NCBI GenBank assembly: GCA_030605835.1
Contig: JAUWHO010000042.1
Location: forward strand, 5,732 to 69,731
Direction: 5' to 3'
Source of the DNA: Candidatus Zixiibacteriota bacterium
GTDB lineage: Bacteria > Zixibacteria > MSB-5A5 > DG-27
DNA length: 64,000 bases
The stretch's first letter is position 1; every line of letters begins with the position of its first letter. Shown one piece after another: positions 53,658 through 62,706 of this stretch. The notes under the pieces were generated by a model that was given only the letters and a program-made list of their open reading frames with translations, did not search any database and was not told the DNA's origin. Position numbers and translations under genes: made by a program.

Positions 53658-53690
53658 CCCTGTCTACTACCTACTATCTACTACCTACTG
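53658..53690. repeat. CTACTAC / CTACTGT 7-nt repeat tract
   Basis: ccctgtctactacctactatctactacctactg, overlapping the last codons and stop (53685-53687) of the ORF ending at 53685. Confidence 0.8.
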
Positions 53691-54107
53691 TTCTTTAGAA
53701 AATTTCTCGTCCAGCGATTTCTTCATATTCGGTGAGGCTTTCCTACCTACGGCCGCCTGGGCCGCTCTCCGGGCCGTCTCCTCAGAGACCCCGGTGATTC
53801 TCCTGATCTCATCCACAGCGACATCAAGCCACTCCAGCCAGGGCTTGTCTGGATATTTCATGGAGAGGTAATCGGTAACATCATCGGCGATGATCAAAAG
53901 GTGCTCCGCGACGTTCTTGTTCGTATTCGACTTCAGCGTAGGCACCAAGAATTTCTTGCTCAACCACGCAAGCACTGTCAGAGACACGAGTCCGATAATT
54001 TCCATTAGAGACTCCTTCAAAACCGGAACAACCTCATCTGAAACCCCAGCGTGAGCCGTCCCGGCAAAACAGAATAACAACGCTACTGCACAGATTATCT
54101 GCTTCAT
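53685..54107 (-). CDS. Small secreted/membrane-associated hypothetical protein
   Basis: ORF track 53685..54143 trimmed to third ATG (MKQIICAVALLFCFAGTAHA signal peptide; GGAGG 7 nt upstream); one further hydrophobic helix. Confidence 0.45.
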   Translation of the reverse strand: MKQIICAVALLFCFAGTAHAGVSDEVVPVLKESLMEIIGLVSLTVLAWLSKKFLVPTLKSNTNKNVAEHLLIIADDVTDYLSMKYPDKPWLEWLDVAVDEIRRITGVSEETARRAAQAAVGRKASPNMKKSLDEKFSKEQ

Positions 54108-54141
54108 CATCATCCTCCAGGTAGAGAGAGCTTGTTCCCCC

Positions 54142-54206
54142 ATTTCCTATTTCCTATTTCCTATTTCCTGTCTACTGTCTACTGTCTACTACCTACTACC
54201 TACTAA
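54142..54206. repeat. CCTATTT / CTACTGT / CTACTAC 7-nt repeat tract
   Basis: catttcctatttcctatttcctatttcctgtctactgtctactgtctactacctactacctactaacc; overlaps the last 5 codons (LVGSR) and stop of the M15 peptidase gene. Confidence 0.85.
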
Positions 54207-54590
54207 CCTTGGCACTTGGATATGTATATGTTCTCCTCTGCCAACATCGTGATGAATGAAGCGGATTCCCCAATCTCCATACCAGTATTCGATCCAGTTC
54301 TGTTGTTCTAAGATTTCCTCAGCGGTAAAGCCGCGGCTGCGCAAATCCACGGCTCCACAGGGAGAGTCGAGGTGTCTGCTCGGCTTCAGGTAACCGTAGA
54401 TTTCTCTTTGTCGTTCGGGGGTTCTCCTCACCTCCGTAACGACCAGGTTCTTCCCAGCGGTGCGAGAAACGAAACCCGCTAACTCCAAGATCATCCCCCG
54501 CAGCCGCGCGTCCATCCCCCGGTGGGAATAGAACTGCTCTTCCAGTGCGGGCCTCTTGAATAGTAATCCCATTTTCTTAAAGGTAAACAA
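54189..54590 (-). CDS. Peptidase M15-like (zinc D-Ala-D-Ala / L-Ala-D-Glu peptidase fold; endolysin-like)
   Basis: ORF track 133 aa (TTG start, AAAGGGGA upstream); [13 protein letters not shown] and GEHIHIQV resemble the H-x-D / E-x-x-H zinc ligands of M15 peptidases; no signal peptide. Confidence 0.5.
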
Positions 54591-54630
54591 TTTCCCAAAT
54601 CCCCTTTTGGGTGGAAGGGAGCGGGGTGGC

Positions 54631-54733
54631 CCTGTTCCCTGTCTACTGTCTGCTGTCTGCTGTCTACTGTCTACTGTCTACTGTCTACTGCCTACTGTCT
54701 ACTACCTACTGTCTACTACCTACTATTTGCTGC
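54631..54733. repeat. Longest CTACTGT-type 7-nt repeat tract (about 14 units)
   Basis: ccctgttccctgtctactgtctgctgtctgctgtctactgtctactgtctactgtctactgcctactgtctactacctactgtctactacctactatttgc. Confidence 0.9.
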
Positions 54734-54763
54734 CTTTCAACGGGAAGGAGGATTCACGACCCT

Positions 54764-60059: not shown

Positions 60060-60195
60060 ATTCTGTTCTCCTCACCGGAGGCTATAAAAAAGCCTCCGGC
60101 TGAAAAAGTTGTCAGTTTGCCGGCCTCAGCTTGACTTGTGGCAGGCAGGATGATATGAGCATTCCCGAATGATCGCAGTGGGAAGCTCGAACGGT

Positions 60196-60618
60196 TTAGT
60201 TCAATATGAGGGTGACCTCAGTGGAGCCGTGAACCGCGATGACGGTGCCCCGGGCGACGTTTCCGCCGGCGGGGTCATTGCCCGCCAGGGCTGGGGCCTG
60301 CTTGACACTGCCGTCGCCATCGACCACCACTCTACCCCCCAACCCCGGCACCGTTGCGGTGGCAGGCAATGTGGCCACGCCTCCCACCTGCACCGTGGCG
60401 ACGCGTTTGCCTTGATCGGCATCGGTCAGGGTCAAATCCGCCAGCTTCCCTAAGAGAACGTCTCCATCGCTGCCGAAACTGACTTCGTAATCGTCGCTGA
60501 TGGCGACCGCTTTTCCGATGTCTTCGTCCTTGAGGTCGTCAACATCTCCGGTCTGATGGATTTCGAAGGTGGCGAAGACCGCCCCCACGTTTTCTAAGTT
60601 CTGATCTCTAACGCTCAT
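60196..60618 (-). CDS. DUF2190-like small Gly/Val/Ala-rich protein (phage head-associated family; tentative)
   Basis: ORF track 140 aa; ...GKLADLTLTDADQGKRVATVQVGGVATLPATATVPGLGGRVVVDGDG pattern resembles DUF2190 from memory. Confidence 0.35.
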   Translation of the reverse strand: MSVRDQNLENVGAVFATFEIHQTGDVDDLKDEDIGKAVAISDDYEVSFGSDGDVLLGKLADLTLTDADQGKRVATVQVGGVATLPATATVPGLGGRVVVDGDGSVKQAPALAGNDPAGGNVARGTVIAVHGSTEVTLILN

Positions 60619-60864
60619 TTCCGTCTCCTATTCTGAGTTATTCTCTGTCCTATCGTTGAGCGGCGACAACGCCGCCTGAAACTGTCAGGCAGGAATGCCT
60701 GACCTGTCATTTCGGTCAGGCAGCAATGTCCGGCCTATTCCTAATATTACATCCCTAATAGGCTGGGCTTTTCCGCCGGGGACTGCCCGAGGCAGTCAAG
60801 CGGATCAGCCTCTGGCTGACCAGCCCAGCGCTCAAATATGCGTGGAGCAGCAATGCCAGACCCT

Positions 60865-61266
60865 TTATTTGAATTCAGATGTGGTGAGGTAATCATCTTC
60901 GGTCAGTTCTTCCTGGTGTGACCCTGGTCGATTCGGCAGACACCGATTGAACTCTGAGGTCACCTCTTTTTTCAGCAACTTCAGATCCTCGTAACTGAGA
61001 TCCTGGCTGTCTAAAAGCTTGGTGATCATGGAGGCCGAGGTGGTCTCCCCTTTCACCTTCGTGATGGCGGAGAGCATCCTTCTCACCTCGTTCTTCACAT
61101 CCTCGGTGATTCTGACAGCTAAGGAGCTTTTTTCGCGAAGATCCACGAGCGCTTCCTTGGCCATCTCCAAATCCGAGATCAGGGCATCGAAGTCGATCAA
61201 ATCCAGGCTTTCAGCTTTTAGAAACCTGGTGTAATCTCCAAGCCTTTCAGCGATATCTTTGGACAT
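60865..61266 (-). CDS. Acidic coiled-coil protein (scaffold-like; tentative)
   Basis: ORF track 133 aa; predicted mostly helical, highly charged (E/D/K-rich). Confidence 0.3.
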   Translation of the reverse strand: MSKDIAERLGDYTRFLKAESLDLIDFDALISDLEMAKEALVDLREKSSLAVRITEDVKNEVRRMLSAITKVKGETTSASMITKLLDSQDLSYEDLKLLKKEVTSEFNRCLPNRPGSHQEELTEDDYLTTSEFK

Positions 61267-61302
61267 TTATTCCTCCACTATGCCGCAACAATCCTCTCAT
61301 TC

Positions 61303-61352
61303 CCCTACCTACTACCTACTCACCACTAACCACTCACCACTCACCACTCACC
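61303..61352. repeat. CTACCTA / CACTCAC 7-nt repeat tract
   Basis: cccctacctactacctactcaccactaaccactcaccactcaccactcacc; overlaps the last codons (GEW) and stop of the 98-aa ORF and precedes the next gene's start. Confidence 0.85.
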
Positions 61353-61637
61353 TTTCCTGGTTTGATATTCGATTTTCATCAACCGAGTGTTGATCTGTTC
61401 CCTGAACTCGAAGAACTCCTCCTTGGTGATGAATTTGCTGTTCAGGAGCACCTCGATGTTGGACAGTCTTTTGTCCAGCTGGTCGACGTTGGCGGCTTCG
61501 GCTTTGTTTGCGAGGTCAAGCCTTATGCCACCTATGGTGGTGTAGTAGGCCGCCAGAACTCCGCAAACCGTGACCAGAAAGGCAACCGCGAACTGTAACA
61601 GTTCCCTTTTGCCCAGGAACTTGACGTTATTCTTCAT
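61341..61637 (-). CDS. Small membrane-anchored coiled-coil protein
   Basis: ORF track 98 aa; N-terminal TM helix LLQFAVAFLVTVCGVLAAYYTTIGGI then heptad-rich region. Confidence 0.35.
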   Translation of the reverse strand: MKNNVKFLGKRELLQFAVAFLVTVCGVLAAYYTTIGGIRLDLANKAEAANVDQLDKRLSNIEVLLNSKFITKEEFFEFREQINTRLMKIEYQTRKGEW

Positions 61638-62706
61638 CTTGAGATTTCATTCTGTAAAAAAGCCAGCGGAATTTTTTGTTGATGATTATCTTCCGGAAGC
61701 GGAAATCCCCGCTCAGGTGTGGAGACAGAAACTGTATCTCCATTAGGTCCCGATTAAGACGGGTAGGTGCTATCTCTTCCGGAGGAATAGTAATATCTTC
61801 GACCGGAATCTCATCCTTTTGTTGCCCCGGTCTGCCGTCCTGCAAACACAAGTCTGCCAGGAAGCATCTGCCCTGTCTGATTCTCTCTTCATATCCGGAG
61901 GGCAGAGCGAACTGATATCTATTCCCGTTGACGGAGAAGGAGAAACGGAATCTCTTGTCCTCTTCTTTCGGGACTTGACCCGGCGGCTTTTGACCCAGGT
62001 AGCCCTGCAGCGAGAAGAAATCTAGCTCCTTGGTGATCCTGGTATTTGGAGTGGCGCCGCGGTAAACTAAAGAGGTCTCCAGAATCTTTTCAACGCCACG
62101 GTAGTTGAAATAAGCGGTCTGGAGCTCACCCGAGGGGCCTCGATACTTACGGAAGGGTATATGTTTGCATTCTCGTATATCCTCTCCGCAGATGCTGCAC
62201 TCCGGGGTGGTGAAGCTGAAGCTGATGGAACACTCCTTGTAGACGCCGGAATCGATGTTGGTTTTTAAGTCTTCCCCCTCCTTGGTCCCTTTGGCCCAGT
62301 AGAAATAGACCTTCACCCAGGAGGTGACCTCTCCCTTTGGGGAGCTATTCGCCCTCTCCACCACCGCGTGGAAATTTCTCGCCACTGGAAGCTTTTCTTT
62401 GGAATGACCGACCATCACCGGGGTGTCGACAAGCAGTGCCGCGATGCGATCGTGCTCCTCCGGAGGGAAGCGGCCGCCGCAGTTGTTCACCGAGTCGGAG
62501 ACTATATACATGGCCCGGATATGAACCTCCCCGTTTTTCACCGGGCGGGGTGGCCGGATGCGTCTGTTTATGAGGTTTATCAGTTCCTCCTCTTTGGAGG
62601 GGCTTTTCGTTCCCGCCTCTAAACGTGCTTTTAGCTTACCGTTCAACTGTGTCAATTTCGCCTCCAAGTGTCTCTCCACCCTATACCCTCTCTTCAGAAA
62701 CAGCAT
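61627..62706 (-). CDS. Putative prohead serine protease-like protein (HK97 gp4 / S78-like core with C-terminal extension; tentative)
   Basis: ORF track 359 aa; ...TPVMVGHS...(about 55 aa)...EGEDLKTNIDSGVYKECSISFSF has His-then-Ser spacing and context similar to caudoviral prohead proteases; start codon uncertain. Confidence 0.35.
   Translation of the reverse strand: MLFLKRGYRVERHLEAKLTQLNGKLKARLEAGTKSPSKEEELINLINRRIRPPRPVKNGEVHIRAMYIVSDSVNNCGGRFPPEEHDRIAALLVDTPVMVGHSKEKLPVARNFHAVVERANSSPKGEVTSWVKVYFYWAKGTKEGEDLKTNIDSGVYKECSISFSFTTPECSICGEDIRECKHIPFRKYRGPSGELQTAYFNYRGVEKILETSLVYRGATPNTRITKELDFFSLQGYLGQKPPGQVPKEEDKRFRFSFSVNGNRYQFALPSGYEERIRQGRCFLADLCLQDGRPGQQKDEIPVEDITIPPEEIAPTRLNRDLMEIQFLSPHLSGDFRFRKIIINKKFRWLFYRMKSQDEE

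Follow-up and report, generated by a model that had tools for sequence, protein, structure and literature searches.

A phage-derived head and packaging gene cluster in the chromosomes of Zixibacteria, a candidate domesticated GTA-like particle system

Background

Among described systems, the gene cluster of Zixibacteria reported here is close to the GTAs (the RcGTA-type of Alphaproteobacteria, BaGTA, VSH-1, Dd1 and VTA). Like these, it is chromosomal, of similar size and made up of morphogenesis and packaging genes only; it lacks integrase, replication and lysogeny genes, tolerates split loci, and co-diverges with its host flanks under purifying selection and with host-like codon usage. It differs from GTAs in that it matches no NCBIfam GTA model at cut-off (best NF048001, 13 bits vs 50), lacks genes for a tail tube, a tape measure or other parts of a long tail, places the portal gene before the terminase gene, carries a ligase/phosphoesterase fused to the protease and encodes several exported proteins.

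Capsid-forming PICIs (cf-PICIs) build heads and package DNA with genes of their own but depend on a helper phage for tails. The gene content of the cluster resembles theirs, with head and packaging genes, no tail genes and a similar size. Unlike cf-PICIs, it has no integrase, regulatory or replication module, is apparently inherited vertically and cut by cellular genes, and shows no att sites in the loci examined. A third point of comparison is offered by tailed phages with a phrog_3922 capsid, represented by the uncultured human-gut 'Bacteriophage sp.' MT835508 and MT835769. Their capsids are the nearest in phage records (28-34% identical) and they share a colinear arrangement of portal, g01-like protease, (g04-like protein) and capsid, but their contigs hold no homologs of g06-g11 and belong to larger phage genomes (up to 46.7 kb), whereas in Zixibacteria cellular genes border the cluster.

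The starting point was a stretch of 64,000 nucleotides (the window) from a Candidatus Zixiibacteriota bacterium, for which an initial annotation had described a block of phage-head-like genes and proposed a decayed prophage or a domesticated encapsulin-like or GTA-like system. By comparison with related genomes, all of them uncultured MAGs, we find that the block makes up the downstream 9 kb, with head and accessory genes, of a larger virus-derived cluster. No such cluster was found in the literature searched.

Results

The block comprises eleven ORFs at 53685-62706, all on the minus strand and each at the coordinates originally assigned to it. They are listed with their upstream neighbours:

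g01, 61627..62706, minus strand, prohead protease domain with C-terminal LigD 3'-phosphoesterase-like domain
g02, 61341..61637, minus strand, small protein with N-terminal membrane anchor and coiled-coil tail
g03, 60865..61266, minus strand, acidic helical scaffold-like protein, between the protease and capsid genes
g04, 60196..60618, minus strand, cement/decoration candidate, formerly DUF2190-like
g05, 58950..60059, minus strand, major capsid protein
g06, 57459..58895, minus strand, cytoplasmic Asp-box (BNR) beta-propeller with C-terminal beta-sandwich
g07, 57003..57371, minus strand, conserved 122-aa protein
g08, 56120..56944, minus strand, conserved 274-aa protein, two small beta-repeat units between helical ends
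g09, 54878..56074, minus strand, exported or membrane-anchored protein, N-terminal half variable, C-terminal half conserved and beta-rich
g10, 54189..54590, minus strand, small LAS/M15-like peptidase candidate
g11, 53685..54143, minus strand, small protein with two hydrophobic segments and charged C-terminus
Spacer, 62707..63512, no strand, non-coding and repeat-rich, upstream of g01
PEP-CTERM protein gene, 5' part, 63513..64000, plus strand, opposite to the block

As first described, the spacer is non-coding and built of short dispersed repeats, and period-7 tandem arrays are present all through the window. HMM searches of the spacer found no portal or TerL remnant and Rfam no family. The downstream flank of the window encodes adenosine kinase, enolase, RecO and a tRNA synthetase.

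The protease, the scaffold, the cement-like protein and the capsid support the interpretation of the upstream genes as a head module. The protease domain of g01 spans about residues 40-225 with His101 and Ser160 invariant, and differs from T4 gp21 and herpesvirus assemblin, to which sequence similarity is not detectable (8% identity), by an extra CxxC...CxH knuckle (C170/C173/C180/H182) and by the C-terminal fusion to a domain of LigD 3'-phosphoesterase-like fold, here without the HxDxR motif; in many relatives an ATP-dependent DNA ligase lies between the two domains. The hydrophobic segment of g02 covers residues 12-35, and 53 of 58 family members carry such a segment within their first 60 residues; the gene is conserved inside the head module and detected by HMM in 64 of 85 loci, with no significant match in family searches. 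The acidic character noted for g03 is borne out (pI 4.76), and in RBG-1 (L036) its homolog forms the C-terminus of the protease, HMM positions 5-134 aligning to residues 220-349; phage scaffolds are often fused to the protease. For g04, the proposed likeness to DUF2190 holds weakly: PF09956 (Phage_cement_2, now 'Phage cement protein') reaches sub-threshold scores in 9 of 29 family members, with a best E of 0.0019 and 0.11 for the window copy. The protein hits phrog_4588 ('virion structural protein') at E=1e-6, is 56-76% identical across loci and has a homolog ahead of the capsid gene in phage contig L089, and it is probably a capsid cement or decoration protein. The capsid-sized g05 proved to match phrog_3922 'major head protein' (E=3.4e-63); it scores 25.9 bits against Pfam Phage_capsid_4 (PF25209), under the cut-off of 27, and E=0.013 against TIGR01554 (HK97-type), the capsid fold being predicted from profiles only. 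At E<=1e-5 it has 670 homologs, the best 120 of which are 62-100% identical and, wherever an organism is named, come from Zixibacteria.

Downstream of the capsid gene, g06 is the Asp-box protein it was taken for, a beta-propeller with PF13088 on some homologs, and is found in 83 of the 85 loci. For its AF2 model (pLDDT 94.5), Foldseek ranks the LME-1 phage portal-tail complex first (9efk_M, E=1.5e-10, but a TM of just 0.31), ahead of sialidases and propeller lectins, generic propellers scoring nearly as high, and in BFVD the model matches phage spike and sialidase-like proteins; g06 is a candidate virion spike or nozzle-type protein. A neck or virion component is a candidate role for g07, which occurs in 71 of the 85 loci, always adjoins g08 in either order, and gave no match in family and PDB searches. 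The beta-repeats of g08 (motif DYxVDYxxGxIxR) match phrog_18315 and phrog_807 ('major tail protein with Ig-like domain') and reach 35.9 bits against NCBIfam tail_tube_6XGR (cut-off 60). A PDB sequence search with g08 was empty; a 50%-identity library holds 174 representatives, and most among the 150 matches listed are about 270 aa long and align over nearly their full length, g08 being a candidate virion protein.

The hydrophobic segment of g09 (residues 19-42) has a counterpart within the first 60 residues of 46 of 53 members; the gene, with the conserved C-terminal motif FDPG..PP..LCRVYGW, was found in 59 of the 85 loci. The M15 peptidase call for g10 is only weakly backed, by phrog_894 endolysin (E=0.0065) and an SxHxxGxAxD...HxH motif seen by eye, and Pfam and PDB sequence searches were empty. 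With homologs only in L006 and L022, g10 is, as far as these loci tell, a lineage-specific insertion outside the conserved cluster. The last conserved gene, g11, comes after g09 in 30 loci; its segments (residues 11-34 and 45-62, the N-terminal one in 28 of 30 members) suggest a holin-like topology.

A terminase and portal had been reported missing in and next to the block. Within the 64 kb this stands, as tblastn with cluster-specific queries (E<=1e-3) detected no homolog, but for the neighbourhood it is misleading, a product of the window end. Metagenome contig L086 is collinear with window positions 57268-64000 to the last base at 89-94% nucleotide identity, the spacer being well conserved save three indels. 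At 2.0 kb past the window end it encodes the intact C-terminal 185 residues of TerL (237 bits, E=1.6e-74), on the strand of the block and 3.3 kb upstream of g01, in the order TerL(+), radical SAM/SPASM(-), PEP-CTERM(-), spacer, g01(+). Instead of a complete prophage with att sites, which had been considered for the DNA outside the window, that DNA holds a pair of inserted genes of cellular type, followed by TerL; the PEP-CTERM and radical SAM/SPASM genes sit between g01 and TerL in the window lineage, the former belonging to family c35 (PF07589 in the L080 homolog). Because L086 continues collinear from the window into TerL, the absence is an edge effect, and the terminase of the block is most likely to be found some 2 kb past the window end. 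Since L086 ends inside TerL, only its 3' end, and no portal, is seen in this lineage. In 39 loci, portal (phrog_3753, E=2e-33) and TerL (phrog_2, E=1e-33; Terminase_6N above its cut-off) lie just upstream of g01. The Walker A (TGNRWGKS), Walker B (DE) and nuclease Asp motifs of TerL are at least 90% conserved, which argues for DNA packaging.

A search of one-genome-per-species contigs gave 185 stretches that match the colinear cluster; the best 80 come from 80 different assemblies, nearly all labelled Zixibacteria. Its gene order is conserved across dozens of Zixibacteria species: portal, TerL, protease (often fused to DNA ligase and 3'-phosphoesterase), small membrane protein, scaffold, cement protein, capsid, beta-propeller, two to three small conserved proteins and then exported/membrane proteins, in all about 12.5-15.8 kb from portal to g11. 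In relatives it sits directly between housekeeping genes, with flanks encoding RecG, Lon, lipoyl synthase, CDP-alcohol phosphatidyltransferase, a TPR lipoprotein and an HD-GYP protein; every flank family scanned is of cellular type, and none is an integrase, a repressor or another gene of replication or lysogeny. In one clade a NurA-HerA pair adjoins the capsid block.

Rearrangements consist of insertions of 0.1-7 kb, for which the TerL-g01 interval is a hot spot, and inversions, and some portal-TerL loci are followed by at least 8 kb of unrelated DNA. TerL is reduced to a 56-aa remnant in L073, g06 is split in L028, L029, L030 and L036, and L003 and L030 lack protease and scaffold genes in the neighbourhood of the capsid gene.

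In the window lineage all block genes are intact and without stop codons, with dN/dS of 0.08-0.30 against two relatives (capsid 0.08-0.13). Capsid and flank-gene identities rise and fall together (r=0.94, 63 pairs; r=0.93, 28 pairs), the capsid staying at or above 55% even where the flank falls to 21%; this co-divergence points to vertical inheritance. With a GC content of 0.544 vs 0.540 for the host and a codon-usage r of 0.917 vs 0.938+/-0.021 for host gene subsets, the composition is host-like. A scan of 2.9 million IMG/VR viral contigs returned one 11-kb fragment only which, together with the distance of the phage-record capsids, suggests that the cluster is not a circulating phage.

Discussion

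On these genomic data we favour, with moderate confidence, a chromosomal, vertically inherited, phage-derived and domesticated GTA-like DNA-packaging particle system, which among the alternatives first proposed fits best. The host would express the cluster; scaffold and protease would guide capsid assembly around the portal, after which the protease would clear the interior, and TerL would pump DNA into the head and cut it. The products of g06, g07 and g08 would finish a particle with a very short tail or none; no gene for a tail tube, tape measure, sheath or baseplate is recognisable in the cluster. The membrane or exported g02, g09 and g11, with the peptidase of this lineage, may serve release or function at the cell envelope. 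Because replication, integration and lysogeny genes are absent and the cluster is split by cellular insertions, the particles would most likely carry host DNA and not a viral genome. Against the GTA-like interpretation speak the lack of recognisable tail genes, the weakness of the g06 match to a phage nozzle, the signal or anchor segments of several downstream proteins, unusual for virion parts, and the decay in the lineages with damaged copies (L073, L028, L029, L030, L036, L003).

The same evidence of domestication would serve a particle with a role other than transfer, for example as a PBSX-like killer, as a decoy, in defence, or to deliver the protease-tethered ligase/phosphoesterase, which we regard as possible with clearly less weight. 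In its favour are the DNA ligase and LigD-type phosphoesterase that many genomes attach to the prohead protease, the exported proteins and the neighbouring NurA-HerA pair of one clade, but in the profile and structure searches made here no sequence feature specific to killing or defence was seen, and the conserved ATPase and nuclease motifs of TerL argue for DNA packaging.

That the cluster is the structural remnant of one or more defective or cryptic temperate Zixibacteria prophages, slowly decaying and of no benefit to the host, is unlikely. Every recognisable gene is a phage morphogenesis gene, and the damaged copies and the insertion hot spot would agree with decay. The initial idea of a decayed prophage nevertheless runs against the intact reading frames and low dN/dS of the window lineage, the host-like codon usage, the conserved catalytic motifs of TerL, the all-cellular flanks, and a gene order that is kept across species with flank genes down to 21% identity, capsid and flank genes diverging together.

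That the cluster is a cf-PICI-like mobile phage satellite is more doubtful still. The analysis would allow it on gene content, as portal, terminase, protease, scaffold and capsid without tail genes fit within the span of the cluster, but neither border of the loci examined has an integrase, alpA-like regulator or primase-replicase module, the housekeeping genes on either side co-diverge with it, cellular insertions and split loci would be intolerable for a packaged mobile island, and IMG/VR holds a single fragment. The encapsulin-like proposal, a portal-less HK97-type shell with cargo enzymes and no DNA, which a capsid gene without portal or terminase in the window had suggested, is very improbable given the portal and TerL that begin the cluster in relatives, the TerL past the window edge in this lineage, and a dedicated prohead protease, scaffold and cement-like protein that are not known as features of described encapsulin operons.

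Conclusions

The cluster for which we favour a GTA-like role is, as judged from the genomes compared, widespread in Zixibacteria, where it appears to be kept under selection.

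Results

Head proteins of the block

All eleven minus-strand open reading frames that the initial annotation had described as a phage-head-like block were recovered at the coordinates given there, and they are listed here in the direction of transcription.

61627-62706, minus strand: g01, prohead protease
between g01 and g04, minus strand: g02, small membrane-anchored protein
between g02 and g04, minus strand: g03, scaffold-like protein
60196-60618, minus strand: g04, cement-like protein
58950-60059, minus strand: g05, major capsid protein
57459-58895, minus strand: g06, beta-propeller protein
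57003-57371, minus strand: g07
56120-56944, minus strand: g08
54878-56074, minus strand: g09, exported/membrane-anchored protein
54189-54590, minus strand: g10, peptidase candidate
53685-54143, minus strand: g11, protein of holin-like topology

The 369-aa g05 product, singled out before for its capsid-like size, matched the PHROG family 3922 'major head protein' with E=3.4e-63. It scored 25.9 bits against Pfam Phage_capsid_4 (PF25209), slightly below the cut-off of 27, a signature that is also precomputed on many of its homologs, and it matched TIGR01554 with E=0.013; a sequence search of the PDB gave no significant match. Judged by these matches, the block appears to carry a major capsid protein of the HK97 lineage, and a prohead maturation protease of the tailed-phage (HK97-type) head module is present as well. 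The 140-aa g04 had been likened to DUF2190: the corresponding family PF09956, now named 'Phage cement protein', was indeed found in 9 of the 29 family members, but always below threshold, and g04 matched phrog_4588 'virion structural protein' with E=1e-6. The acidic, scaffold-like nature of the 133-aa g03 was borne out by its pI of 4.8 and by the RBG-1 genome, where the homolog forms one protein with the protease, phage scaffolds often occurring in such fusions. PDB sequence and profile searches with g01, g04, g06, g07, g08 and g10 returned nothing significant. Exact copies of the capsid protein were found on two short contigs only (2.5 and 1.7 kb). The GC3 of the capsid gene (0.80) exceeds that of all 32 host genes in the window (0.57-0.73) and is likewise high in g06 (0.76), which may reflect selection for high expression.

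Propeller, small, membrane and peptidase proteins

The supposed Asp-box protein, the 478-aa g06, was modelled in agreement with that description as a beta-propeller plus a beta-sandwich (pLDDT 94.5), and PF13088 (BNR_2) is present on some of its homologs. Its top structural match was a chain of the LME-1 portal-tail complex, a T7-like assembly made of portal, adaptor, nozzle and fibre (PMC12407071), at a TM-score of only 0.31, with sialidases and lectins scoring nearly equal. Neither g07 nor g08 found informative relatives in family, profile and PDB searches; a full-library search with g08 returned same-length relatives and repeat-unit matches and nothing else, its resemblance to phage families being limited to a small repeated beta unit, and a Pfam search with the g08 family returned nothing. 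The order of these two genes is reversed between clades (e.g. locus L019 versus L013), the window having g07, g08 and many other loci g08, g07.

N-terminal hydrophobic segments occur in nearly all members of the families of g02, g09, g11 and a variable gene that accompanies them in related loci, so these are predicted to be membrane or exported proteins, which are unusual as virion parts. For g10, proposed to be an M15/LAS peptidase, the best match was a weak one to the endolysin family phrog_894 (E=0.0065); Pfam, NCBIfam and PDB gave no match, the zinc-ligand motif (H, D, H) was recognised by eye only, and the gene was found in only two further loci.

A conserved cluster in Zixibacteria

Searches with the capsid protein retrieved 670 homologs (E<=1e-5); identity is 62-100% for the best 120, and all organism-named ones among these 120 are from Zixibacteria. 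Likewise, scanning one genome per species yielded 185 matching stretches, the best 80 of which lie on 80 separate assemblies and are nearly all labelled Zixibacteria or carry generic metagenome-assembled genome (MAG) labels. Colinearity among the retrieved loci, judged by tblastn, ORF clustering and family HMMs, extends in most of them through g01, g02, g03, g04, the capsid gene, g06, g07/g08, c9 (a small helical protein of the cluster), the variable gene, g09 and g11. In 39 loci two more genes, co-directional with this set and just ahead of it, encode a portal (phrog_3753, E=1.9e-33) and a large terminase, TerL (phrog_2, E=1.2e-33; Terminase_6N, 24.5 bits, above the cut-off of 22), of approximately 450 aa each. 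Conservation of the Walker A (TGNRWGKS), Walker B (DE) and nuclease aspartate motifs of TerL is 90% or higher across 32 members. Measured from the start of the portal gene to the end of g11, the full cluster covers about 12.5-15.8 kb, and no candidate for a tape measure, tube, sheath or baseplate was found in it.

The c9 protein (~90 aa, encoded after g07) is related to the C-terminal part of c55, a 190-aa protein with a CxxC/HTH-like N-terminus that is encoded between portal and TerL in other clades (the two forms are exemplified at L073:13729-13995, L003:18595-18870 and L035:5741-6316). The protein is thereby a candidate small terminase of shifting position; neither form occurs in the window. 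One clade (L003:5125-7923, L030:11-1576) is missing the protease, g02 and scaffold genes beside the capsid gene and instead has an upstream gene pair encoding a NurA nuclease and a HerA/DUF87 ATPase, which may belong to a defence island or may have been inserted without any relation to the cluster.

In many Zixibacteria genomes the g01 homolog is a longer protein of 500-790 aa (e.g. L013:6002-8335; proteins P0250, P0253 and P0285), in which the protease is followed by an ATP-dependent DNA ligase (PF01068, E=5.8e-29) and a LigD-type 3'-phosphoesterase domain. The g01 of the window retains only a degenerate phosphoesterase-like domain. We know of no described ligase that is tethered to a prohead protease.

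A probable terminase gene beyond the window edge

The initial annotation had found no terminase or portal in or beside the block. For the window this holds, as the 64 kb contain no portal or TerL homologs, but as regards TerL probably not for the adjoining DNA. A protein search with g01 led to the JGI contig L086 (9.4 kb), which encodes a 91%-identical protein. L086 aligns collinearly with window 57268-64000 up to the final base of the window, the nucleotide identity being 89-94%. Past that point it continues with the remainder of a PEP-CTERM gene and a radical SAM/SPASM gene, both opposite in strand to the block, and then TerL, of which the last 185 codons are present on the strand of the block, intact to the stop codon and with the nuclease motifs (237 bits, E=1.6e-74 against the TerL model of the cluster, positions 271-446 of 447). 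The collinearity and this TerL piece would place TerL of this lineage 3.3 kb upstream of g01, approximately 2 kb past the window end; L086 stops within TerL and so does not reach the portal.

In this lineage the PEP-CTERM and radical SAM/SPASM genes (window 63513-64000; L086:733-3068) have been inserted, in opposite orientation, into the stretch from TerL to the protease gene, and a PEP-CTERM homolog lies upstream of the portal in other clades. A deletion of portal and TerL, which the shared PEP-CTERM neighbour might suggest, is rejected because L086 has TerL beyond the PEP-CTERM gene.

In other loci TerL and g01 are often separated by insertions of 0.1-7 kb. Inversions are likewise common, and so are portal-TerL loci that are followed by 8 kb or more of unrelated downstream DNA. 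In ten genome loci, a stretch of 6 kb or more ahead of g01 is free of packaging genes. On the complete chromosome CP070766.1 (L073) only the last 56 TerL codons are left, just upstream of g01 (L073:6245-6412), a deletion remnant which shows that packaging genes have been lost at that site in some lineages.

Chromosomal context and evolution

The cluster borders directly on ordinary cellular genes; its neighbours include those encoding RecG, a TPR lipoprotein, lipoyl synthase, an HD-GYP protein, Lon protease and a CDP-alcohol phosphatidyltransferase, and surface-protein genes are often found within or beside it. The downstream flank in the window encodes adenosine kinase, an MBL-fold nuclease, enolase, RecO and a class II tRNA synthetase; the window holds no tRNA genes. 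The flank families scanned, a set leaving aside many small flanking ORFs, were all cellular, with no integrase, repressor or replication gene among them.

In loci that have a flanking host gene in common, capsid identity tracks the identity of that gene (TPR gene, r=0.94, 63 pairs; lipoyl synthase, r=0.93, 28 pairs), and the capsid stays at least 55% identical even where flank identity drops to 21%. Compared with two close relatives, all block genes are intact, with dN/dS of 0.08-0.30, and GC and codon usage of the block match those of the rest of the window. From these comparisons, the cluster appears to be inherited vertically under purifying selection. As every genome here is a MAG, errors of assembly may account for frameshifts and for split genes.

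Scanning 2.9 million IMG/VR contigs retrieved a single 11-kb fragment of the cluster. Among phage records, the closest capsids show 28-34% identity and belong to contigs from the human gut, which have the order portal, g01-like, (g04-like) and capsid in common with the cluster but lack g06-g11.

Repeats and the spacer upstream of g01

The 7-nt repeats reported previously were confirmed as tandem arrays throughout the window, accompanied by short dispersed repeats. Heptamer units vary by array (GTTTCCT, CATTCAC, CTGTCTA, ACTCACC and others). Period-7 arrays were present in 50 of 170 sequences scanned, chiefly in the window's closest clade; being so common among related loci, heptamer repeats do not serve as a lineage marker tying portal-only contigs to the window genome. 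Short GC-rich palindromic elements, e.g. AGGGTGGGGGTTCAACCCCCACCCT, are repeated at distant window sites and look like REP- or MITE-like repeats; one 29-nt unit is shared with other contigs of Zixibacteria and in L132 lies between the portal and TerL genes. Positions 7939-8354 hold two tandem copies of a 207-bp unit at 95% identity.

Table. Repeats in the window; the dispersed palindromic repeats also occur in loci L130, L132 and L133.
2441-2534, intergenic 7-nt tandem array
7519-7592, intergenic 7-nt tandem array
20886-21283, intergenic 7-nt tandem array
53663-53689, intergenic 7-nt tandem array
54142-54205, intergenic 7-nt tandem array
54639-54735, intergenic 7-nt tandem array
61318-61352, intergenic 7-nt tandem array
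63183-63216, intergenic 7-nt tandem array
62868-62892 and 20920-20960, dispersed palindromic repeat
62961-62989 and 7694-7722, dispersed palindromic repeat

The 0.8-kb non-coding spacer at 62707-63512 is largely conserved in L086 (3069-3879) except for three indels and seems, by eye, better conserved than the synonymous sites of neighbouring genes (dS 0.13-0.22); it may hold regulatory elements. It contains no traces of portal or TerL pseudogenes and no known RNA family (Rfam) at or near threshold. A promoter and terminator scan performed no better than chance.

Discussion

The cluster fits a domesticated, phage-derived particle system, in which a host-encoded head and packaging motor with conserved motifs would be maintained by selection and passed on as part of the chromosome, every function for viral self-propagation would have been lost, and splitting by cellular genes would be tolerated. 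It matches the profile of a gene transfer agent (GTA), in that phage-like structural genes appear to be chromosomal and unaccompanied by genes for replication, integration or lysogeny. GTA particles, as a functional class, carry random host DNA, in pieces too small for their own gene cluster, to other cells. Of the options put forward initially, a GTA-like domesticated system fits best. The cluster is not a member of the RcGTA-like family, as ten block proteins gave no NCBIfam GTA model above cut-off (the only match being NF048001, at 13 bits versus a cut-off of 50), and by such comparisons the cluster appears to fall outside the known GTA families.

Established knowledge of HK97-type heads suggests that assembly would proceed by way of scaffold, protease, portal, terminase and cement; the kind of DNA that would be packaged, a possible short tail and the part played by the envelope proteins are inferences that go beyond it. 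At its most specific, the proposal is that the phylum Zixibacteria possesses a DNA-packaging particle of independent GTA-like origin, domesticated long ago and having no tail or a minimal one, with a protease-tethered ligase and 3'-end-healing phosphoesterase in the capsid and conserved exported proteins for release or uptake, a combination that we regard as possible though rather doubtful. With both enzymes tethered inside the capsid, the particle would deliver DNA together with repair and joining enzymes to the recipient.

Several readings rival a transfer particle. One is a domesticated particle with a non-transfer role. Another is a satellite resembling a capsid-forming phage-inducible chromosomal island (cf-PICI), against which speak the absence of an integrase, AlpA-type regulator and primase-replicase at the borders of the loci examined, the co-divergence of the cluster with its flanks and its interruption by cellular genes. 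An integrated functional prophage would bring an integrase, att sites, lysogeny control, replication genes and a tail module, none of which was seen inside or bordering the cluster at the loci examined, direct repeats lying outside the systematic search. The decayed prophage considered initially is contradicted by intact genes, low dN/dS and host-like codon usage. An encapsulin nanocompartment, that is an HK97-fold shell with cargo genes and no portal, terminase, protease or scaffold, is contradicted by the protease, scaffold and cement-like genes of the block and by portal and TerL in the cluster.

To our knowledge, only a handful of independent GTA lineages are known, nearly all from cultured Proteobacteria, spirochaetes and one archaeon, and a full-text literature search of a limited collection found no paper linking Zixibacteria with GTAs, prophage capsids or terminases. 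The cluster is odd in its protease-ligase-phosphoesterase fusion, its lack of a recognisable tail and its exported partners, and virus-detection pipelines may score such clusters as prophages. If the domesticated-particle reading is true, it would constitute an independent case of virus domestication, in the form of a structural-only, selected cluster across an uncultured phylum, and would provide a concrete candidate route of horizontal gene transfer in sediment and groundwater communities.
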